A stretch of DNA of 64,000 nt. Source: Escherichia coli (GTDB lineage: Bacteria > Pseudomonadota > Gammaproteobacteria > Enterobacterales > Enterobacteriaceae). Made by a program: the position numbers and the translations under genes. Where the stretch lies: NCBI RefSeq assembly GCF_030384885.1, contig NZ_CP128613.1; one strand, given 5' to 3'. The notes under the pieces are model-generated. The model was given only the letters and a program-made list of their open reading frames with translations. It was not told where the DNA came from and made no database searches. Shown one piece after another: positions 5,918-58,887 of the stretch. Positions within the stretch are counted from its first letter, which is position 1. Every line of letters begins with the position of its first letter.

Positions 5918-8288
<2,371 letters not shown>

Positions 8289-11615: not shown

Positions 11616-11881
11616 AGAAAAATTATTATGACAAGCCTCTCATTCTCTTGTCATTTCCCCCCCATTTAGGCACAATGCGCCGCTGTCAAAAAATGACTAA
11701 AAACCGACGTTTAATTAGCGTCGGTTATTTTTTGCTTCAAACCAATCATTCATACCAAGAGGCCGGGCTTCGTACCGGATAGATATTTACTAAAAATCGA
11801 CAGTTGTTGTCGCTGAGGAATCCAAAAAAATGGGGCAATTTTTTGCTTACGCGACGGTTATTACCGTAAAGGAGAATGACC

Positions 11882-13240
11882 ATGTCGCATAACGTTACTC
11901 CAAACACCTCTCGCGTGGAATTGCGTAAAACGCTTACGTTAGTTCCGGTTGTAATGATGGGTCTTGCCTATATGCAGCCGATGACGCTGTTTGATACATT
12001 TGGTATCGTTTCAGGCCTCACGGATGGTCATGTGCCGACAGCCTATGCGTTCGCATTGATTGCGATCCTGTTTACGGCTCTGAGCTACGGGAAGCTGGTT
12101 CGCCGCTATCCTTCTGCTGGCTCTGCATACACTTACGCCCAGAAATCCATTAGCCCGACCGTCGGCTTTATGGTGGGTTGGTCTTCTCTGCTCGACTATC
12201 TGTTCGCGCCGATGATCAACATTCTGCTGGCGAAAATCTATTTTGAAGCTCTGGTGCCTTCCATTCCATCGTGGATGTTTGTGGTGGCGCTGGTGGCCTT
12301 TATGACCGCCTTTAACCTGCGTAGTCTGAAATCCGTAGCGAACTTCAACACCGTCATCGTGGTGTTGCAGGTAGTGCTGATCGCGGTAATTCTGGGCATG
12401 GTAGTTTACGGCGTATTTGAAGGTGAAGGCGCTGGTACGCTGGCGAGCACTCGTCCGTTCTGGTCTGGTGATGCACATGTCATTCCGATGATCACTGGTG
12501 CGACGATTCTGTGCTTCTCCTTTACCGGCTTTGACGGCATCAGCAACTTGTCGGAAGAAACCAAAGATGCAGAGCGCGTGATCCCGCGTGCAATTTTCCT
12601 GACCGCGCTTATCGGTGGCATGATCTTCATCTTTGCAACTTACTTCCTGCAACTGTACTTCCCGGATATCTCTCGCTTTAAAGATCCGGATGCGTCACAG
12701 CCTGAAATCATGCTGTATGTTGCGGGTAAAGCGTTCCAGGTCGGCGCGCTGATCTTCTCCACCATTACCGTACTGGCGTCCGGTATGGCGGCGCACGCAG
12801 GCGTAGCGCGTCTGATGTACGTAATGGGTCGTGACGGCGTGTTCCCGAAAAGCTTCTTCGGTTATGTGCACCCGAAATGGCGTACTCCGGCAATGAACAT
12901 CATCCTGGTTGGCGCGATTGCCCTGCTGGCAATCAACTTTGACCTGGTAATGGCTACGGCGCTGATTAACTTTGGTGCGCTGGTGGCGTTCACCTTCGTT
13001 AACCTGTCGGTTATCTCGCAGTTCTGGATCCGTGAGAAGCGTAACAAGACGTTGAAAGATCACTTCCAGTATCTGTTCCTGCCGATGTGTGGTGCGCTGA
13101 CCGTTGGTGCGCTGTGGGTTAACCTGGAAGAAAGCTCAATGGTTCTGGGTTTGATCTGGGCGGCAATCGGTCTGATTTACTTGGCTTGTGTCACCAAGAG
13201 CTTCCGTAACCCGGTTCCGCAGTACGAAGACGTTGCATAA
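11882..13240 (+). CDS. plaP: APC-family putrescine importer
   Basis: ORF 11876..13240, start [11 protein letters not shown], 12-TM amino acid permease. Confidence 0.9.
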
Positions 13241-13280
13241 TCTTACAAGCCGGATGACATAATCATCCGGTAAATCTCAA

Positions 13281-13311
13281 AAAGCCGGAGTTTGTCGCTC
13301 CGGCTTTTTTG
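13281..13311. terminator. bidirectional terminator between convergent plaP and sbcB
   Basis: A-run, stem gccggag/ctccggc, T-run. Confidence 0.7.
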
Positions 13312-13313
13312 TT

Positions 13314-14741
13314 TCAGACGATCTCTTCCGCGTACTGCCAAAGCGCTTTTAACAGCGCCACTTTCTCTTTGTCATCGGCATATTGTTGTGCCAGCATCTG
13401 CAATTCATCAGCATAGCCCTGCAAAAACTCTGGCGTGAAAACCTGGCGGCGGTGCTCCAGCCAGCGTTGCTGCTCGGCATAATCCAGCGTCCCCGGGAAG
13501 TTGCGCGCCCGATAATTGAACAACAGCTTTTCAATCCGTTTATCAACAAAAGTGATATCCAGTGCCGGTAAATTACGCGGCTCGGTTTCCAGCACAATTT
13601 TCATTGCTGCACGATCGGCGTCACTGAAAAAGCCATTATAAAGCTGTGCATCCACGTTATCTGAAGGCGTAAACGGTTCGGCTTCGGCGAATATCGCCAC
13701 CACTTTTTCACGCACTTGCGGATTTTCACGCAGAATTTTCAGGTTATCGAGGCAATGCTGACGATTAATTCCCAGTCGGTCGGCATCTTCCGGGCGTAGC
13801 GTATTCGCCTGGGCCAGCACCGGACATTTATTGATATGCACCAGTTTAACCGGAACGGCGGCGTTATCGCCAAGATCGGCTTTTGCGGTATATAAACGCT
13901 CGCGCAATGTGTCGCTATCCAGCTCCAGTAATGGCGAAATGTCTCCTGCCAAATCCACCATAATTACGGCATTGCGATTTTCAGGATGCCACGCCAGCGG
14001 TGCCACCCAGCTGGTATTGCCACGCCATGCCCCAAACATTCCGGAAACGTGAACCAGGGGTTTCATCTGCGGAACATCAATCAACGCCATCAGTTTGTGT
14101 TTATTACGATGGGTAAAGAGATAATCAAACAGGCGTGGCTGACGCGTTTTTACCAGTTTCGCCATCGCAATAGTGGCGTACACATCAGCCATCGCATCGT
14201 GGGCGTTGCTATGTTCAATACCATTCGCTTTGGTTAAATGCTCAAGGCGAAAGCTCGGTAGACCGTCATCATTTTCAGGCCAGTTTATTCCTTCCGGGCG
14301 CAGGGCATAACAGGCACGCATAACATCCAGTAAATCCCAGCGCGAGTTATCATGCTGCCAGCTCCAGGCGTAAGGATCGTAGAAATTACGATAAAAAACG
14401 TTGCGTGTGACTTCGTCGTCGAAACGCACATTGTTGTAGCCCAGAATACAGGTCTTCGGTACGGTAAAAAGCGAGTGAATACGGGCGGCAAACGCGGCTT
14501 CGTTTTCTCCTTTCGCCCGTGCCTCCTGCGGGGTAATACCGGTAATTAATACTGCTTCAGGCTGGGGTAAATAGTCATCCGCGGGCTTGCAGTAAAAGAC
14601 TTCGGGTTCGCCGATGACATTGAATTCGTTATCAGTGCGAATGGCTGCGAACTGTGCAGGGCGATCTAACGCGGGGTGCGTTCCAAAGGTTTCGTAATCG
14701 TGAAACAAAAAGGTAGATTGTTGCTTACCGTCATTCATCAT
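13314..14741 (-). CDS. sbcB: exodeoxyribonuclease I
   Basis: ORF 13314..14789, start MMNDGKQQSTFLFHDYETFG (DEDDh exonuclease motif). Confidence 0.94.
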   Translation of the reverse strand: MMNDGKQQSTFLFHDYETFGTHPALDRPAQFAAIRTDNEFNVIGEPEVFYCKPADDYLPQPEAVLITGITPQEARAKGENEAAFAARIHSLFTVPKTCILGYNNVRFDDEVTRNVFYRNFYDPYAWSWQHDNSRWDLLDVMRACYALRPEGINWPENDDGLPSFRLEHLTKANGIEHSNAHDAMADVYATIAMAKLVKTRQPRLFDYLFTHRNKHKLMALIDVPQMKPLVHVSGMFGAWRGNTSWVAPLAWHPENRNAVIMVDLAGDISPLLELDSDTLRERLYTAKADLGDNAAVPVKLVHINKCPVLAQANTLRPEDADRLGINRQHCLDNLKILRENPQVREKVVAIFAEAEPFTPSDNVDAQLYNGFFSDADRAAMKIVLETEPRNLPALDITFVDKRIEKLLFNYRARNFPGTLDYAEQQRWLEHRRQVFTPEFLQGYADELQMLAQQYADDKEKVALLKALWQYAEEIV

Positions 14742-33207: not shown

Positions 33208-36200
33208 TCAAATGTTTTTATAACATGTCACATGAGAAAATCCAAGTTTTGCCATTACGCTTTGCTCACCTGTTGCCAGGGAAATTTCGTATTGTTCATT
33301 GGAGTTTGCGGGACTAGATGACCAATACATATCTGAATAAAAATCGGCTTCATTCATGTAATGCCCCATATCTCCCCATTCACTGTACAATGTCCCTATA
33401 CCTCGGGAACGACCCTGGCTTAAAAGGCTTGCACGGGGAAGCATGTAGCCATTGCTACTGCAAAAATTTTCAGCAAGGCTGTATATCATGAAAGAATCGC
33501 CGGAGTTTACCCACCAACTCTTCACCCGGATTTCGTATATATAGCCAGGGCCTCCTGATTTTGGCGTCGCTGTAATCGTTACCCAACTGCTTCCGACATT
33601 TTTAAATGTCACTTTACCGGTAGCGTCAACATCGACCCAGGAGGCAGAGCTTGAAAACTCATAATCAGCCGCCGTTTTGCCCGGGGAAAAGTTGTCATTA
33701 TTCAACTGATAATAAGCCCCAGTGAACCCCTGCGAAGGGAATGTAGTTGTCGGTAGGTTAGCACCATTGACTAACACGGTACCGCTCATTATTTTGTCTT
33801 CTGCGCGAGTGAATTGTATTGTGGTACTCAGACCCGCTTGATGAACACCATTCAATACAGGGATCAGCGTTGCGATACCCTCTCCGCCTCCTATAACAGT
33901 GGCTTTGTAATCACCGTTGATATTTTGACTGTAATCAATTGCGCTAATTTTCACATAGGGCACGTTAGTACCTGATTGCACAAATTCCATCCCTTCAGAA
34001 ACTTTGATCGGATTGCCTGATATATCGTGCAAAACAAGATGTAGCTCAGCACTATCGGTATAGTCCCCTTTTAGTGATGACCGATTGTTCTTAAGGACGG
34101 ACTGCGAGGCGTCTGCCGGGCCTGCCACCAGCGTTATATTAGCTGTTTGCGTTGCACCTGTGCTCGTTCCTGCACTAACAGTTACGCTCCCAGTTCGCGC
34201 ACTTTTCAAGGTGGTTGTCGCAAATCCGTGTTGATCGGTCACCGCTGTTAATGACCCTAATGTGGCAGAGCCACTTTTTAATGCGAAGTTCACATTGACG
34301 CCTTCGACTTGGTTACCACTGCCGTCCTCAACAGTAGCCTTCAGCGTGCTGATATCGCTGTCGTTGGCAGTGATAGTTGACGGATCAGCGCTCAGGCTGA
34401 CCACATGGGCTGTGCTTTGGTTGCCAGTAACTTTCACGATTGTCTGCGCCTGAATAATTACGCCACTAGTGATAGATGCTGTAACCGTATACGTACCGAC
34501 TTTATTGCTGGTCAGAACGACTTGTGCCTCCCCGGAAGGATTGGTTTTCATTGTTTCGCTACTTAACGTTGCATCTTCTGGCGTTACGCTAAAGGTAACG
34601 AGTTCATTGTTCACTGGGGCCCCATTTGGATTGGTTAGCCTTACTGTCAGAGTTGAACCTAATGGGTCATTGATGCCGATAAGTGGACTTGATGCTGTGA
34701 GTGTCAGTTTTAAATCGATTACCACCAGGTCCTTCTCATAAGAGGAGCCATTCGCCAGGGATGCTTGCACAGTATACGAACCGTATCTATTGGGCGTCAT
34801 GGTGACCTCGGCTATACCCTGTGTATTCGTAGAGACCGTATCCTGACTAATGACCATGTTAAAAAATGACGGCTCTGCACTGAATGTCACAAGCTGTTCA
34901 GAAACTGGATTGCCAAACTGGTCGTCGACGTGCGCTTTAACCGCCAGGGGGGTTGCGACCATAACCTGACCTTCAGGCATTTCCAGACTGGTGATCGTCG
35001 CAGAATCAGCATCTGCTTTGACAGTCAACGTTTGCATGATGGTATCTGTAGGTGCATTTGCCAGATTAGCCACAACAATTTTCGTCCCTGCAATGGTGCT
35101 TGTTACAAGAATTTCTGCCTTACCCTGAGCATCTGTTTCAGCGGTGGTGTTACTCAGCGTGGCGGATAAGCCGCGGAAATTGACCTTGATGCCTTCTAAT
35201 GGATTGTCATAAGCGTCAGTGACACTTGCCGTCAGGGTCGCACCCTCGGTTGTGCTGGCGATTAATGAGCTTGATGATGCGGTAAAATCAGCCAGTTTAG
35301 CGGTACTCGCATCGGCAAGCAAAGTCACCGGCCTCGTATCACTGACACCATAACTGTCCACGCTGACCGTCACGGGATAGGTGCCGGACTTCGTACCGCT
35401 TAGTGTAACTTCCGCCTTGCCGTTGATGTCAGTAATGGCGGAACCGCCTTCTCCAAGAGTGAAGCTTGCACTCACATCTGCCGGTAGTGTGAATGTCACC
35501 GGCTCATTGGCTAACGGGTTGCCGTGTCCATCAGTCACCGTTGCCTGAAGTTGGGTCATCCCAACGTTATTGGCGATAAAGTTGTTCTCGGTAACGTTCA
35601 GATTAACCTGCGCTGTGAGCGTATCCGCAATAAAGTTCACCACCAACTGCTCACTCTTACCGCCAGCCATCGCTGCTGTCACGGTATGTGCTCCTGCTTT
35701 TGTACCTTTCAGTGTGACTTTCGCTTTGCCTTCAGCATCAGTAACCGCTTTACCGCCATCGCTCAGCGTGAAGTTTGCCCTCACATCTTCCGGGAGAGTA
35801 AATGTTACTTCAGTGTTGGCTATCGCATTGCCCTCTGTATCTGCGACTGTTGCTGTTAATGTCGTGAGATCGTTATTGTCGGCAATCACCGGATCTTTTG
35901 AGGCTCCCAGCGTGATTTCAGCATTCGCCACGTTCGGCACATAGGTCACTGTTTGTTGTATCGAATCGCCATTGTCGAGCGTTGCCGTCACTTGATAAAC
36001 CCCGGCTTTTGTAGCGGTAAAGCTTGCGTAAAAATGGCCGTAGGAGTTGGTAGTATATATAGCGTTATTACTGGGGGTCACACCTTCACTTGGCGAAACG
36101 CTGATGGTCACCTTATGTTGGGGTACACCGTTTCCGTAATTATCGTTTACCACAACATACAGATCGGTCGTGTTGCCTGCGGAGACTGTATCAGTAAGTG

Positions 36201-37251
36201 CTTGTAACAAGGTGATATGTGCCGTAGACGCATCAGCGTTGACATTAATTGATGTGCTAAGCGTGGAGCTACCATTTTCCAGACTGGCCTCAACGGTATC
36301 CGGCCTCCCTCCTGATTCTGCCGAGGAACGGGTATTGGTATAAGTGACGGTTGCCTTACCCTGTTCGTTCGTTACGGCTTGGCCGCCATTCGTCATTTCA
36401 GCAGAGTTTGTACTGCTGGTGAAACTCACAGTTACACCTTTCACCGGAAAGCTATTATTATCAACGACTGTCGCGGTGATGACGCTGCCGGTGCTATTCT
36501 GCGGGGTACCAGCGATTATGCTGTTTGGGACAGACGTCAACCCAATAATTTTTGCCGCAGCTGTGTCGCCAATAAAGTGCACAGTTTTGTGGTCGCTGGC
36601 ACCATTATTAGCAAGTGATACAGTGACCGTCTGCTCACCAAAGGCAACGCCTACGAGAGTGGCCTGCGCGATGCCAGACTCATTGGTATTACTCTCCCCT
36701 GGGGTGAGGGTGAGGCCTGAAGAGGCTGAGCTGAATGTTACCGGAAGATTGTTCACCTCATTGTCGAACTGGTCTTTAACCGTTGCAGTTAACGTTGCAC
36801 TATCGACGCCATTACCCGTGATCTCATCTTTTGACATCTGCAGGGCAACCTGAGCCGAGGTTTTGTCTGCCACAAATGTTACCGGCTGCGATTCACTGGC
36901 ATTGTTATTAATCAGCGTCGCGGTAACTGTATGCGTGCCCGCTTTTTTACCTTTGAGGGTGACATGCGCTTCCCCATTGGCTTGGGTGACGGTAATACCG
37001 TTATTTTCAAGGGTAAAGTTTGCCGCGACGTCTTGTGGCATGGTGAAATTCACCGCTATCCCCGCCACCGGATGATTCGACGGATCTTTCACTGTAGCTG
37101 TCAGCTGCACACTGTCGCTGTTATTCGTCACCACCTGGTGAGCAGGAATGTTCAGCGTGAGCCGCGCGTTGCTGGCATCGGGAGCAATATTGACTGTCTT
37201 CGAATCGCTATTGCCGTTAGGCAGAGTGGCTTCGGCTGTATGAACACCCAA
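33208..37251 (-). pseudogene. yeeJ: inverse-autotransporter adhesin, 5'-truncated (Big-domain array and C-terminal lectin-like domain retained)
   Basis: 1347 aa ORF of repeated bacterial Ig-like modules (VTLKGxKAGTHTVTA...) ending ...CYKNI; no signal peptide, LysM or beta-barrel region upstream; ORF abuts hypE fragment. Confidence 0.8.
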
Positions 37252-53432: not shown

Positions 53433-53640
53433 ATGTTATCTGGTTAATAATTTTCTTATGTAATATTATCTATGCCATCTGGCTATGTTTTCAATTGTTT
53501 TAGTTCTCGACAACTGTTTTTATATCCAGTATGATTTTACTCGTATCCGGCAGAATATTTTTAGATGCTGTTTCATGAACTCCGGTTGAAAGGTTTATTC
53601 TCTACTTTTGGGAATAATAGTTAAAATGGAGATAAGTGTA

Positions 53641-55077
53641 ATGACGTTTAGTAATGAAATTGAAGTTTTCATAAAAGATTTTGTTAAAGATCTTGAAAAT
53701 GATTGTGCTGCTATTTTTTCTGGCGCAGGAATGTCTAAAAGTCAAGGTTATGTTGATTGGAAAGAATTACTTAGCGATATAGCAGAAGAACTTAGTTTAG
53801 ACATTAATAAAGAAGACGATCTAATATCGCTTGCTCAATTTCATGTTAATGAAAAGAAAGGGGCTACAAAACTCACAAGGAAGATAATCGAAGAGTTTTC
53901 TGAGCAAGCCGAGCCATCAGAGGTTCATAATATAATTGCTCGTTTACCGATTAAGACATTTTGGACAACAAACTATGACACTTTAATTGAAGATAGTCTG
54001 CGGAAAGTTTACAAAATTGCAGATGTAAAAAGAAACATAGATGATTTAAATACAACACGACCTAAGCGAGACGCGATAGTATATAAAATGCATGGTGATA
54101 TTTCGTCCCCATCCAAGGCTATTTTATATAAAGAGCAGTATGAAAAATACTACAGAACACACGCTTCATTTATCACCGCACTTAGCGGAGATTTAATATC
54201 AAAAACCTTTCTATTCATAGGGTTTAGTTTTACCGACCCAAATCTGGATTACATTTTGAGTCGTTTGTATACTCATTCTGGGGACAAGAGGACACACTAT
54301 TGCTTTATGAAGAATGAGGCTAATAATTCCCTAGATGATGAAGAAACAGTAAATTATAAGATCAGAAAACAAAAACTGCGAATCGATGATCTCAAGAGAT
54401 TTGGTATACAAGTATTATTAATAGATGAATATTCTGACATCCCTAAAATTCTAGCTAAGATAGAGCAATCATTTAAAAAGAAAACGATATTTATTTCTGG
54501 TAGTGCAGAAAAATATGGGGATCTTGAAAGACCTAAAGCATTAGATTTTATTCACACATTAGCATATGAGATTATAAAGAATAATTATAGGATAGTGAAT
54601 GGATTTGGATGGGGCGTCGGAAGTTCTGTGATAAATGGTGCGTTGGATGCAATTTATAGTAGGCCAGATAAATTATCAGAAGAACAGCTCATTGTTAGAC
54701 CATTTCCACAAACTGTCAGTAAGGGGAAAGATATTCAAGAACTTTGGGAGGAGTATAGACAGAGAATGATTCCTCTTGGTGGTATTGCATTGTTTATTTT
54801 TGGAAATAAACAAGAGGAAAATAATGATATAGTTAATGCTAGGGGAGTATTTAGAGAGTTTGAGATTGCTGTTCAACATGGCCTTGTACCAATTCCTTTA
54901 CCCAATACCGGGTATATGTCTAAATATATATTTGAACAAATATCACAAGATCCTAAGAAATATTATGGAAGTAATGAATGGATATATAATGATTTGTCTG
55001 AGCTTACTGAAAAAGATTTTTCGGTAAAAAAAACAATAGAAGTTGTAATAAAAATCATAAACAAACTGAATAAATAA
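53641..55077 (+). CDS. thsA: Thoeris ThsA-like protein (N-terminal SIR2 NADase, C-terminal SLOG domain)
   Basis: ORF 53608..55077; SIR2 motifs FSGAGMS, TTNYD, HGD; C-terminal Rossmann-like FISGSAEKYG... SLOG region; length matches ThsA. Confidence 0.85.
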   Translation: MTFSNEIEVFIKDFVKDLENDCAAIFSGAGMSKSQGYVDWKELLSDIAEELSLDINKEDDLISLAQFHVNEKKGATKLTRKIIEEFSEQAEPSEVHNIIARLPIKTFWTTNYDTLIEDSLRKVYKIADVKRNIDDLNTTRPKRDAIVYKMHGDISSPSKAILYKEQYEKYYRTHASFITALSGDLISKTFLFIGFSFTDPNLDYILSRLYTHSGDKRTHYCFMKNEANNSLDDEETVNYKIRKQKLRIDDLKRFGIQVLLIDEYSDIPKILAKIEQSFKKKTIFISGSAEKYGDLERPKALDFIHTLAYEIIKNNYRIVNGFGWGVGSSVINGALDAIYSRPDKLSEEQLIVRPFPQTVSKGKDIQELWEEYRQRMIPLGGIALFIFGNKQEENNDIVNARGVFREFEIAVQHGLVPIPLPNTGYMSKYIFEQISQDPKKYYGSNEWIYNDLSELTEKDFSVKKTIEVVIKIINKLNK

Positions 55078-55093
55078 TATATTAGGTGAAGTT

Positions 55094-55705
55094 ATGGCTC
55101 ATGAAACATTCATATCATATAAATATAGTGAAGCACAGGATTTAAGAGACAAAATTGTCAAGGCATTAGGAGATGACGCTGTTTACTATAAAGGGGAGAC
55201 ATCGGAGTCTCCTGATATAAGTAATACAACAGTAGATAATATAAAGAACAATCTTAAAAATATGATTTTCGGGACATCTGTTTTAATTGTTATTATTTCC
55301 CCGAATATGATTAAAAGTAAATGGATTGACTGGGAAATTGAATATGCATTGAAAGAATACAAGAGAGGAGGAACCACTTCCCGAACTAATGGCATTGTTG
55401 GTGTGATAATGAAGGTTAATAATAGCTATGACTGGTTAGTATCTTCTTCAATCAAGCCTGATGGATGTTCATCAAGAACTATTGATACAACTAAACTATA
55501 TGACATTATTAATAATAATAGGTTTAATTTAACTTCAGAAGATAAATATTGTTGCCCTGAGTGCAAATCATATGATCAATTGACTGGTTCTTATATTTCA
55601 TTGATAGAAGAAGACCGATTTTTAGCAGATGTATCTTCATACATTGAAAATGCCTATGAGAAATCTAAAAAATTAAGTTCCTACGATTTATATAAACAAA
55701 AATAG
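55094..55705 (+). CDS. thsB: Thoeris ThsB-like TIR-domain protein
   Basis: 203 aa, N-terminal FISYKYSEAQ and SKWIDWEIEYAL typical of bacterial TIR domains; 16 bp downstream of thsA. Confidence 0.8.
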   Translation: MAHETFISYKYSEAQDLRDKIVKALGDDAVYYKGETSESPDISNTTVDNIKNNLKNMIFGTSVLIVIISPNMIKSKWIDWEIEYALKEYKRGGTTSRTNGIVGVIMKVNNSYDWLVSSSIKPDGCSSRTIDTTKLYDIINNNRFNLTSEDKYCCPECKSYDQLTGSYISLIEEDRFLADVSSYIENAYEKSKKLSSYDLYKQK

Positions 55706-55754
55706 ATGATAACGGAAAAGGGCCACAATTATTTGTGGCCTATATATACACATA

Positions 55755-56132
55755 TTAATCAAGCAGGCCACGAGATGTCTTACTTGCAGTCTGACGAAAA
55801 TCATAACGTTCCGCAATATCACCTTTAAACCAGATATCCAGTGATTTAATGTGCGCCGTGTTGCTATTGGTCAACAGAGCAAGGCCCGGTATGTAGTTAG
55901 ATAGTTGGCTTTCTCCCGTCATACTTGAGTAGTTCCACATCTCCTGACCATCAGTCGTAGCGCGTGTTTGAGGCTCTCCAAAGGCAGCAAGAATTTCTTG
56001 TTGGGTAGTTTTTCCCTTGACGATTTTTAATTTAACCGTTTGATGATTTTCATCAGTTAGGGATTTATTACCATGAACGGTACAGCCACTAAGTGGTAAT
56101 ATGATAAAAATAGCAAGTAATAATTTTTTCAT
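55755..56132 (-). CDS. lipoprotein with SmpA/OmlA (BamE)-like domain
   Basis: Signal peptide with lipobox LSGC; ...KGKTTQQEILAAFGEP... resembles BamE fold family. Confidence 0.55.
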   Translation of the reverse strand: MKKLLLAIFIILPLSGCTVHGNKSLTDENHQTVKLKIVKGKTTQQEILAAFGEPQTRATTDGQEMWNYSSMTGESQLSNYIPGLALLTNSNTAHIKSLDIWFKGDIAERYDFRQTASKTSRGLLD

Positions 56133-56163
56133 TTTGTTCCATAATTAGATGAAAGGTGAGACG

Positions 56164-56652
56164 TTAGAAAACATACTTTTTAAATACCAGCATCCATCGC
56201 TCACAAAGTTCGTGATTTGAAGTGCTTTTATTTTTCAAGGGAACATTAACTTTCCACATGGGATTTTTAATATCATCGGTTAAAATATTTAGACCAGACC
56301 GTTTGTTTGCTGAAAGTTGTTCTCTCCAGTTAGCAATGGCCGCATTATTCATACCTCGTAATGTTCCATTGCCGTAAAACTTACCACCTTCTGAAAGCGT
56401 ATAATTTATTTCTCGAATTTGATCAAAAGTATATGTGCTATCTTTATCTTTATTGAAAATACGGACAGTATGTTTTTGAGTATCAATGACAATACCTGTC
56501 TGTTGGCATTGATACGAAAGAATGTCGCCGTCCAGAACTTCCGTGAAGCTGTTGTAGTGCTTTTTCTTCTGTATATCTGCTGCGGTCATGATAATGACGA
56601 AGAGCACCACTAAAAATACGATACCTGTTGCTTCCACTTTTACTTCCTCCAT
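56164..56652 (-). CDS. hypothetical membrane-anchored protein
   Basis: 162 aa ORF with one N-terminal TM helix; weak RBS. Confidence 0.45.
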   Translation of the reverse strand: MEEVKVEATGIVFLVVLFVIIMTAADIQKKKHYNSFTEVLDGDILSYQCQQTGIVIDTQKHTVRIFNKDKDSTYTFDQIREINYTLSEGGKFYGNGTLRGMNNAAIANWREQLSANKRSGLNILTDDIKNPMWKVNVPLKNKSTSNHELCERWMLVFKKYVF

Positions 56653-56769
56653 GTAAATGAGTTAAAGAGACTGAACCCGCTCACAGAGCTTTGCTTCGTT
56701 TTATACGTCCTACAGCACCAAACTCATGGCGTCGGTCTCGGCGTTGCAAGGCTATCAGAACTTGAAATC

Positions 56770-56912
56770 ATGATCGATATAAAAGATCGATAATTGCTTA
56801 TTGATAGATTCTAACGATTAAACAGATGATATCGATCGGCAATTAATTGTTATTATCGATCGAATATCAACTTATGATAGCTGCAAGCTATCATGTGGTC
56901 GTTTTTGATCGT
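56770..56912. promoter_or_regulatory. GATC-dense divergent intergenic region with repeated ATCGATCG motifs and a 21-bp near-palindrome
   Basis: Five GATC sites in about 140 bp; atgatagctgcaagctatcat near-palindrome at 56874..56894. Confidence 0.4.
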
Positions 56913-57069
56913 TTTAAACGATATGACGAGACGCTAAAAGAATTGAATCCTATCAATTGGTTAAGCGGTGGTTTTGCCATGTGATATCAGCCGGATCCCG
57001 CAACAACTCAAGCCCTGACCGGATTAGGTCAAAAATTTAGGCACTTTGATTATCAGGATGGACAAGCAG

Positions 57070-57600
57070 ATGAAGAAGATTTTACTCGTTGTAGGCGCAA
57101 CTCTGGCACTGGCGGGATGTGGTGAGAAAGGTGATTTTGAGAAGGCGATCAATGCCAAGATAGGGCAGGACAAATATTGCTTCTCGCTGGATAACAATAA
57201 CACCAGCTTCCCCATCCGTCTTGCCAAGCCACGACTTGATTCGACTGGCACAGGGACGAATTCAGTGATCCTCGACGGTTTTATTGAGCAGGGCCTGATG
57301 GTTTTTGAACAGGGCTATGATTCGAACGTATTAGGGATAACAGAGGAAGGCAAAAAAGCCAAAGTCTGGAGCACAAGAGACGGTGCTTGTGTAGGTCGTC
57401 GTGCTGTTGATGAGATTAAGGAATGGACGGAGCCGGGAAACGGTAATCAGAAAGTAGTTCGCGTGACTTATACGTGGAAGTTGGTTGACGTTCCGGGCTG
57501 GATTGACAAAAAAGCCTTCGCCAGCGTTAAAGGAATGAATGAACCTGCTGATGGTGCAATGAATCTTGTTAAAACAAGTAATGGCTGGAAAGCTAACTAA
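57070..57600 (+). CDS. hypothetical lipoprotein
   Basis: ORF 57046..57600, start MKKILLVVGATLALAGC (lipobox). Confidence 0.6.
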   Translation: MKKILLVVGATLALAGCGEKGDFEKAINAKIGQDKYCFSLDNNNTSFPIRLAKPRLDSTGTGTNSVILDGFIEQGLMVFEQGYDSNVLGITEEGKKAKVWSTRDGACVGRRAVDEIKEWTEPGNGNQKVVRVTYTWKLVDVPGWIDKKAFASVKGMNEPADGAMNLVKTSNGWKAN

Positions 57601-57695
57601 AAGGATGCTGGATCGTTAAATGCCCCTGCTACGCTGTGGAAAGTGACAGAAGGGGCATGAATTGTATTTCATTTAATGTAGTGAATGATATTTTA

Positions 57696-58268
57696 TTATA
57701 TCGATTTGTTAGATACTTTCATCAATTTCTCTTGAATTTTTCTTATTCTTTCAAGTTCTTCAACAATGGGATTTTTCTCGCCTTCACTTTGCATGAAAGG
57801 GCTTAAGTCTATATTGTTTTTTTCAACAACTTCTTTATTCATATAACTGTACGTTGCGGTTATTGTAAATTGTTGTGGTAACGGATTTTTCGATTCTCCA
57901 AAAATAACCCAACCTTGACCAAGGGCGAAGAATAACTCTTGATTGGGCGCTAAGCTATCAATAGTCGATGTAAAAATACTTGTTTCTTTTAGGTTTTTAG
58001 TTGGCTCATCGAACTGATAAAAATCCTTATCTAATTCTAATTTTACATTCAGGGCTGGTGTCTTACCGCTATTATAAATTTTCAGGTATAGGAATTGCGA
58101 GTGAGGTCTTACCATTGGCTGGATTATTATATAAGGACGAGACATTGCCTCGGTTTGCTCATTCATTATCTGAGCTGTTCGTTCGCTTATTCTCGACATC
58201 TTGTATGTCAAAAATGCATAAATTCCTGTAATGATAACAAGAATTGCTGTAAGTATTTCCATTGTCAT
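57696..58268 (-). CDS. hypothetical membrane-anchored protein
   Basis: 190 aa, N-terminal TM helix, strong RBS aggag. Confidence 0.55.
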   Translation of the reverse strand: MTMEILTAILVIITGIYAFLTYKMSRISERTAQIMNEQTEAMSRPYIIIQPMVRPHSQFLYLKIYNSGKTPALNVKLELDKDFYQFDEPTKNLKETSIFTSTIDSLAPNQELFFALGQGWVIFGESKNPLPQQFTITATYSYMNKEVVEKNNIDLSPFMQSEGEKNPIVEELERIRKIQEKLMKVSNKSI

Positions 58269-58314
58269 GATTAACTCCTAAGTATAATGATTCATACCAG
58301 TAAGGTATAATATT

Positions 58315-58809
58315 TTAACTATTATTGCATTTTTTTCTGTTGAATAGTTGATTATATCCAAGTTCCATTTCTTCAATAAAATCTTCATTAAATGTTGGAA
58401 ATCCACACGCCAGTGGTTCTTTCCCTCGAATTTTGAATAAGTTATAAAGATAACTACTTTCTTTATATGCGACATGAATGGCAGGATATGGCCTATTTTT
58501 TATAATCTTATTGTTTAGTTCCTTATCATTGATAATGTTATATTGATCCCCCGTTATATCAACTACAATATTATCTATCTCAAGCCAGTAATGGGTTATT
58601 TGACTATTTTTTCCGGTAGTTGCGCTAACTCCTTTTAGCTCACATTCAGGCCATAGGGTCAGAAAATGGTAAGAAAGAAGCATTGAGGTAAGCTTACAAC
58701 TCATAACAGGAAAACAGTCTATAACAAGACTGGTGTTCTTTTTATCACAACTTTCAATTAATCTACGAAGCTTAACTGCTTCTTCTTTTATTTCGATAAT
58801 GGTTGGCAA
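58315..58809 (-). CDS. hypothetical protein
   Basis: 164 aa, TTG start preceded by gggag RBS, 46 bp upstream of 57696..58268 on same strand. Confidence 0.5.
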   Translation of the reverse strand: MPTIIEIKEEAVKLRRLIESCDKKNTSLVIDCFPVMSCKLTSMLLSYHFLTLWPECELKGVSATTGKNSQITHYWLEIDNIVVDITGDQYNIINDKELNNKIIKNRPYPAIHVAYKESSYLYNLFKIRGKEPLACGFPTFNEDFIEEMELGYNQLFNRKKCNNS

Positions 58810-58887
58810 GATCAGCTCCCTAACTACATGATGTGCCGAGCATTTAATATATACGATACATAGGTCATTAAAAAGTATGTTCTAAAT

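Follow-up and report, generated by a model that had tools for sequence, protein, structure and literature searches.

Two neighbouring genes of an Escherichia coli integrative mobilizable element, one encoding a predicted transglutaminase-like/papain-fold protein and one a membrane-anchored protein, as independent and possibly defensive cargo

Do two adjacent genes of a mobile island, lying on the same strand and only 46 nucleotides (nt) apart, work as a pair, and what might they do for the element that carries them? The question is raised by a 64,000-nt stretch of an Escherichia coli chromosome (NCBI RefSeq assembly GCF_030384885.1, contig NZ_CP128613.1; hereafter the window), in which gene A (58315-58809, minus strand) encodes a protein of 164 amino acids (aa) from a TTG start, and gene B (57696-58268, minus strand) encodes a protein of 190 aa from an ATG start. 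The product of A is predicted to be a cytoplasmic enzyme with a Cys38-His73-Asp84 triad, and that of B is a single-pass membrane protein carrying the RefSeq label DUF8453. An earlier sequence-only reading of the locus took this combination of a soluble and a membrane-anchored protein for a toxin-immunity, abortive-infection (Abi) or exclusion module. Comparison across genomes gives a different answer: with high confidence, A and B are independent genes and not an obligate pair. The fuller description, in which both are passenger genes and each most likely serves by itself in defence or exclusion, is one on which we regard the balance as even.

Both open reading frames (ORFs) are found where the sequence-only reading had placed them, with the ribosome-binding sites (RBSs) that it had proposed. 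Specifically, a GGGAG RBS for A lies at 58816-58820, 6 nt before the TTG and within the 78-nt gap (58810-58887, minus strand) that separates A from the preceding mobQ relaxase gene, and the AGGAG RBS of B lies at 58275-58279, 6 nt before the ATG and within the 46-nt spacer between A and B (58269-58314, minus strand). The TTG start of A agrees with the N-termini of its homologues (MPT/MLT...) and with the RefSeq annotation of strain EC42405, in which the copy of A is a 100% identical gene. Homologous protein clusters number 188 for A and 463 for B (the latter by profile query), all of them named 'hypothetical', and pairwise dN/dS values against orthologues, 0.07-0.15 for A and 0.07-0.11 for B, show purifying selection on each gene. 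The number of homologue clusters, together with these low dN/dS values, identifies A and B as real genes and not chance ORFs. Many database copies of A (clusters 1, 5 and 6) are recorded as 'partial' at the ends of short contigs, and draft assemblies often break in or beside the gene.

The case for or against a pair turns on co-inheritance. Among 5426 complete E. coli genomes, A-like DNA was found in 123 and B in 70; since all 70 copies of B adjoin A, at least 53 of these genomes carry A without B. The 1.3-kb A-B region matches 78 of the 5426 genomes, always on the chromosome. Outside E. coli, adjacent copies occur in Salmonella (loci L016/17 of the set compared), Yersinia aleksiciae (L025) and Citrobacter/Enterobacterales (L059-62), where identities are 70-90% for A and 78-86% for B. 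In Pluralibacter the locus tags of A and B are adjacent, and in Gibbsiella both genes are on one contig, so that adjacency is presumed for these two genera. If A and B formed a two-gene module, a thiol enzyme and its membrane partner would act jointly in toxin-immunity, abortive infection or exclusion, and the retention of their adjacency across so many hosts, along with the shared strand, the 46-nt spacer and a probable common transcript, is what speaks in favour of such an arrangement. However, every A-B pair belongs to one lineage of integrative mobilizable element (IME), in which the two stand directly after mobQ, and elsewhere they were never seen together in the loci examined. In sister IMEs, A holds its position while unrelated genes replace B, namely a 321-aa gene (L007-9) or a 154-aa gene (L026), and in others (L018, L024 and L027) A is in place with convergent genes instead of B. 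No co-occurrence outside the mobQ IME lineage was detected in 29 A-centred and about 10 B-centred loci. Altogether, A occurs without B in more than 20 further loci beyond the E. coli counts, and B occurs without A in at least six unrelated contexts, including Vibrio and Halomonas, where its identity is still 77-80%. Because A and B are not co-inherited, as the members of a toxin-immunity, toxin-antitoxin (TA) or two-component Abi pair have to be, the module envisaged by the sequence-only reading has to be given up in its obligate form; a two-gene module of any of these kinds is improbable, and a facultative functional interaction between A and B has the same low standing with us.

Apart from B, gene A is found on several kinds of mobile element. 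For example, it directly follows P4-type integrases (PRK09692, 7.7e-271) in eight loci (L019, L020, L032-36 and L038), all of them satellite-like islands that also encode a helicase/primase and an AlpA-like protein, and it follows gpA in P2-like prophages (L022, L023 and L045), presumably at the place where P2 carries its tin/old cargo, to judge from the layout. One copy lies within a phage head/tail module (L021), and others are part of the cargo of CRISPR-associated transposons (CAST) of type I-F3 in Pseudoalteromonas (L005 and L029) and Rheinheimera (L028). Further copies are located beside SoFic (1.5e-47) in Morganella (L010), two genes from Drt5 (2.6e-202; L031) and beside PbeA-like and HNH-effector-like genes (L035 and L044), and at two loci (L010 and L042) neither a relaxase nor an integrase is nearby. 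The CAST-cargo homologues are 66-69% identical and are flanked by unannotated genes of 175, 378 and 588 aa. In one of the P2-like prophages (L022), a 205-aa ORF (7332-7949) beside the A homologue resembles part of the 591-aa terminase (11724-13499), of which it may be a duplicated fragment.

Gene B has likewise been found on its own in disparate settings, including Vibrio islands with integrases, Mrr and ApeA, a Rhodocyclaceae locus beside an insertion sequence (IS) element and HicAB, a metagenome-assembled genome (MAG) in which it lies beside an integrase and BrnT, and Thiovibrio. In Halomonas (L002, 6621-8555), a copy of 77% identity adjoins YoeB/YefM and comes after a 429-aa gene with a partial match to Dazbog DzbB (1.1e-11), which may represent a variant arrangement or a coincidence in a TA-rich island. 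The notion that B has a conserved downstream partner was also considered and discarded, as the genes found in Vibrio (219 aa), the MAG (236 aa) and Thiovibrio (217 aa) are mutually unrelated.

The two products were also considered one by one. The earlier description of a soluble A and of a B with a single N-terminal transmembrane (TM) helix is borne out by hydropathy, with a maximal Kyte-Doolittle 19-residue mean of 1.45 for A, which has no hydrophobic segment, and of 2.06 for B, in which residues 3-21 form the one strongly hydrophobic segment. Searches with the sequences placed neither protein in a described family: NCBIfam and PADLOC (5027 models, PADLOC-DB 2.0, E<=1) gave zero matches, single-sequence Pfam searches gave sub-threshold matches only, searches of PDB sequences and profiles gave nothing significant (A profile E 0.1-0.5), and the PHROGs matched were families of unknown function (phrog_26734, 4.9e-5; phrog_9607, 1.2e-7). 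No match to a housekeeping or conjugation-apparatus family was obtained for either. The earlier view that neither protein belongs to a recognised family thus holds for these sequence searches, but for A it has to be amended at the level of the fold.

The AlphaFold model of A (predicted local distance difference test, pLDDT, 73.6; predicted template-modelling score, pTM, 0.70) resembles solved members of the transglutaminase/papain fold. As in that fold, the putative nucleophile stands at the N-terminus of a helix, with C38 opening helix 38-52, and the rest of the triad is spread over two successive strands, with H73 in the next-but-one strand, 71-78, and D84 in the strand that follows, 81-85. 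Conservation follows the same residues: all 120 of the diverse family representatives compared have C38, H73 and W75, and D84 is kept in 118 of them (D84, T86 and Q89 each reaching 98%). The sequence-only reading had remarked on several conserved-looking cysteines in A, which is correct for C38 across the family, whereas C21 is invariant among close homologues only. The family is small, with 317 representatives at E<=1e-3 in a profile search of 1.84 billion representative proteins, and the members listed are nearly all single-domain proteins shorter than 190 aa; it ranges over Enterobacterales, marine Gammaproteobacteria and, more distantly, Firmicutes.

Remote relatives of A connect it to named families. 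These relatives align to the subfamily of A with an hhalign probability of 99.9% and match the Pfam families YunG (best 3.9e-11), Transglut_core (1.2e-4) and Transglut_core3 (5.6e-4), while A alone matches only YunG, below threshold (i-E 0.0022) and over 40 of 116 model positions. The likeness to YunG (PF24585) and Phage_YunG-like (PF24591) falls on the His/Asp region, where weak YunG matches recur in 54 of 57 close homologues. As far as we are aware, no function has been assigned to YunG, and this connection therefore says nothing about how A works. In the relatives' profile, the motifs PxGxC, H and D-I-T-A-D-Q-F align onto C, H and D-V-S-A-H-Q-F of SseI at an E of just 0.1; on chain numbering and general knowledge, we take the aligned SseI residues to be the catalytic C178, H216 and D231. 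On the strength of the model and of these alignments, A is very probably a diverged, minimal member of the transglutaminase-like/papain fold, about 160 aa long and with an intact Cys38-His73-Asp84 triad. The fold is compatible with cleaving, deamidating or cross-linking a substrate, and does not choose among the three.

Enzymes of this fold include SseI, PMT-C3-type deamidases, LapG and protein-glutaminase, to all of which the sequence similarity of A is below significance. In contrast to SseI/LapG-type enzymes, A is a bare domain of 160 aa with no secretion, targeting or substrate-binding module, and it is cytoplasmic and carried on mobile elements. Several remote relatives occupy settings of their own. 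In Butyrivibrio (L050, 4085-6186), one and an antiphage HerA gene overlap at the 3' end of the latter (882 bits for HerA against a cutoff of 850); in Pseudomonas (L047, 5777-6732), two stand in tandem after a Dcm-like methyltransferase gene; and in mitis-group streptococci (L052 and L054-L058), relatives lie between parE and the next gene.

The structural model of B is confident (pLDDT 86.4). It consists of a continuous helix over residues 2-43, made up of the TM segment and a stalk, a seven-strand immunoglobulin (Ig)-like beta-sandwich over residues 47-154, and a C-terminal helix over residues 167-188. Positive charges occur only after the TM helix, so an N-out/C-in orientation is predicted and the sandwich probably faces the cytoplasm. 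Invariant residues within the TM helix (L6, T7, L10, Y17 and T21) suggest that the helix is more than an anchor, and conserved polar residues within it that B may oligomerise or contact a membrane partner. The family is very uniform in length, at about 186-190 aa, and at >=50% identity it extends over Enterobacterales, Vibrio, Halomonas, Psychrobacter, Rhodocyclaceae, Gallionellaceae, Burkholderiaceae, Rhodospirillales, Thiovibrio and Blastocatellia. Gene B is therefore conserved at this level across several phyla, and yet it has no described function. The newest RefSeq annotations name E. coli copies of 97.4% identity 'DUF8453 domain-containing protein', and it is by this label that B is assigned to DUF8453, a family that did not come up for B in the Pfam library searched; the label records only that the family exists. 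Neither DUF8453 nor the WP accessions are mentioned in the searchable literature, and literature searches combining transglutaminase with defence terms produced nothing of use.

Membrane-tethered defence and exclusion proteins include Cap15-type effectors, with a TM part and a beta-barrel, and single-pass proteins of the HK97 gp15 type. Like these, B has a small beta-rich domain behind an N-terminal TM helix and occurs as a stand-alone gene on mobile elements. No homology to them was detected, and B differs in having one TM helix joined to an Ig-like sandwich; the likeness may accordingly be used as a lead to how B works, and not as a sign of relationship.

The surroundings of A and B bear on why they are carried. 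In the window, a low-GC island begins after a tRNA-Ser(cga) gene (43794-43883), and this serU island is an IME. It contains a RepL-like gene (RepL in EC42405), an H-NS paralogue, a type I Thoeris system, two lipoprotein genes and a DUF4755 gene, followed by B, A, the MobQ relaxase gene, TraD, a type IV pilin and a PilV-like adhesin. The relaxase gene (58888-60369, minus strand) matches NCBIfam NF041496 (2.5e-74, 249 bits against a cutoff of 200), and the Thoeris system (53608-55705) is complete in both of its genes (ThsA, 8.9e-203; ThsB, 1.1e-85). A and B do lie between these two, in defence/mobility cargo, as the sequence-only reading had it, with three backbone genes between Thoeris and B. 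They were rejected as components of Thoeris, as neither is ThsA or ThsB nor conserved beside them; strain EC42405, with the same A and B, has other cargo in place of Thoeris.

The position of A and B can be compared with that in other islands: the MobQ relaxase family is present in 803 of the 5426 complete E. coli genomes, always on the chromosome and never on plasmids. The cargo slot in question extends from mobQ to a lipoprotein gene, a backbone gene (184 aa; 57046-57600, plus strand, in the window) that is conserved beside the slot in the window and in L001, L007, L016-18, L024, L027, L059 and L067. In other strains, a gene of about 91 aa precedes the lipoprotein gene and has no counterpart in the window. 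Where the window carries A and B, Nissle 1917 has tcpC with a TIR gene and a macro-domain gene (L067, 10560-13097), APEC20/16 a DUF3696 gene with a hypothetical gene, 1296KP two radical-SAM genes, and AH20J067 the HEPN anti-phage gene ApeA; the other slot intervals outside the window are 6027-7942 (L069), 6127-8277 (L070) and 6226-8031 (L071). This mobQ-proximal slot is a variable cargo hotspot, largely of the defence type. Some 15% of complete E. coli genomes have it, and because it holds immune-type genes such as ApeA and the TIR/macro genes, along with tcpC, unknown genes within it are good candidates for new immune functions. The tcpC and ApeA cargo occupies the equivalent place of a shared backbone, with mobQ on one side and the 91-aa/lipoprotein genes on the other, but has no sequence or fold relationship to A and B, and the likeness is positional.

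The slot also places tcpC, a reported virulence gene, among interchangeable cargo of the defence type. Its presence there in Nissle 1917, together with the fact that many structural neighbours of A are secreted effectors, might suggest that A is itself a host-directed virulence effector comparable to SseI, Cif, SpvD or Ceg10. Given a bare cytoplasmic domain, such a role for A appears very remote.

Could A instead belong to the backbone of these islands, as a relaxase or integrase accessory or as a regulator of excision or transfer? It stands immediately after MobQ even in IME variants whose relaxases are merely 58-63% identical, immediately after P4-type integrases in another island family, and it persists where other, inserted genes now separate it from mobQ (L024 and L027). 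Against this, the relaxase is far more widespread than A-like DNA in E. coli (803 against 123 of the 5426 genomes), for which reason A was also rejected as a core gene of the IME, and islands with the same backbone bear tcpC, ApeA, DUF3696 or radical-SAM genes instead. Some copies of A, as noted for L010 and L042, have no relaxase or integrase nearby, and neither A nor B shows the presence on MOBQ plasmids and the universality within the IME family that are expected of a conjugation or mobilisation accessory. The interchangeability of the slot contents argues against A and B as relaxase accessories, and we regard a backbone role for A as highly unlikely.

A further possibility is that A, and perhaps B, serves counter-defence or establishment, for example by cleaving or deamidating an immune protein of the host. 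There are well-known examples of small papain-fold enzymes whose action inactivates a target protein, among them the effectors that are structural neighbours of A, and A travels on an IME, satellite-like islands, a P2-like prophage and CAST, in the first of these probably on one transcript with the relaxase. Plasmids and phages are, however, where counter-defence genes usually abound, and close homologues of A and B are absent both from 72,556 plasmids, where tblastn returned three remote matches for A and one for B, and from 50,697 phage records searched by megablast and tblastn. Moreover, where A and B are missing from the slot, it is occupied by defence genes, ApeA and TIR/macro for instance. 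A distribution that leaves out plasmids and phages and takes in chromosomal integrated elements and defence islands is more easily explained by defence cargo than by counter-defence or transfer, and a counter-defence role is considered unlikely, if somewhat less so than the module or the backbone role.

The reading of A and B as independent passenger genes with separate defence or exclusion functions is therefore the one preferred here, and a defence-type function for them is plausible at a level just short of even confidence. Under this reading, each protein would act alone against phages or other mobile elements. Gene A would apply thiol chemistry, that is, proteolysis or deamidation of the kind known from SseI, LapG and protein-glutaminase, to a phage or host protein during infection, and B would act either as a sensor coupled to a membrane effector or as a block to injection or entry. 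It is a tentative and rather bolder proposal that A founds a new single-gene family of anti-phage or anti-mobile-element proteins based on thiol chemistry, with B as a second, independent membrane-anchored defence or exclusion protein, neither of them listed in current catalogues of defence systems.

Several observations weigh against these ideas. The case for a defence role is drawn from gene neighbourhood, and A and B match none of the 5027 PADLOC models. A is a small protein in which no sensor domain can be recognised; its AlphaFold2 model is moderately confident, with pLDDT below 50 for residues 90-106; and the topology of B is predicted from the distribution of charges. The position of A directly after a relaxase or integrase in many elements could mean a role in the life cycle of the element, and the A-B pairing is kept over E. 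coli, Salmonella, Yersinia, Citrobacter, Pluralibacter and Gibbsiella.

Part of this picture was already in place, as both families are catalogued under hypothetical or DUF names and neither the island backbone nor the tcpC locus is new. New here are the assignment of a fold and triad to A, the recognition of A and B as separate mobile units, and the description of the mobQ-proximal slot as a defence hotspot. Gene A is compact and has an obvious predicted triad, which makes it easy to test and to mutate, and knowledge of the independence of A and B saves the effort of a toxin/immunity design.

The transcription of the two genes also departs somewhat from the two-gene operon that the sequence-only reading had proposed. 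The shared strand and the 46-nt spacer agree with it, but the 78-nt gap that follows mobQ yielded no sigma-70-like site. This lack of a promoter-like site before A makes a mobQ-A-B unit more likely than a separate operon of two genes, with A and B probably transcribed by read-through from the relaxase gene. Downstream of B, between it and the convergent lipoprotein gene, a stem-loop predicted by RNA folding (57620-57658, minus strand; -17 kcal/mol, z -2.57) is the probable end of the transcript; its U-tract is weak, and the terminator scan did not report it. An Rfam scan of window positions 55500-61500 identified no RNA family.

Some features of the wider island merit mention. The H-NS/StpA paralogue (48894-49298, minus strand) matches H-NS at 7.9e-53, below the equivalog cutoff, and related islands (L007 and L059) have an annotated H-NS-like gene as well. 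Upstream of the serU island, the stretch at 22763-43883 has four tRNA-Asn genes among variable segments that include a 1347-aa ORF (33208-37251). Finally, at 61713-63759 in the window, as well as in L001 and L067-L070, a type IV major pilin and a PilV-like tip adhesin are encoded beside TraD, oriT and MobQ, but the annotation of the island stretches examined shows none of the typical pilus-assembly genes. Possibly the element re-equips the thin pilus of a helper plasmid, for example one of the IncI type, and so changes mating-partner specificity.
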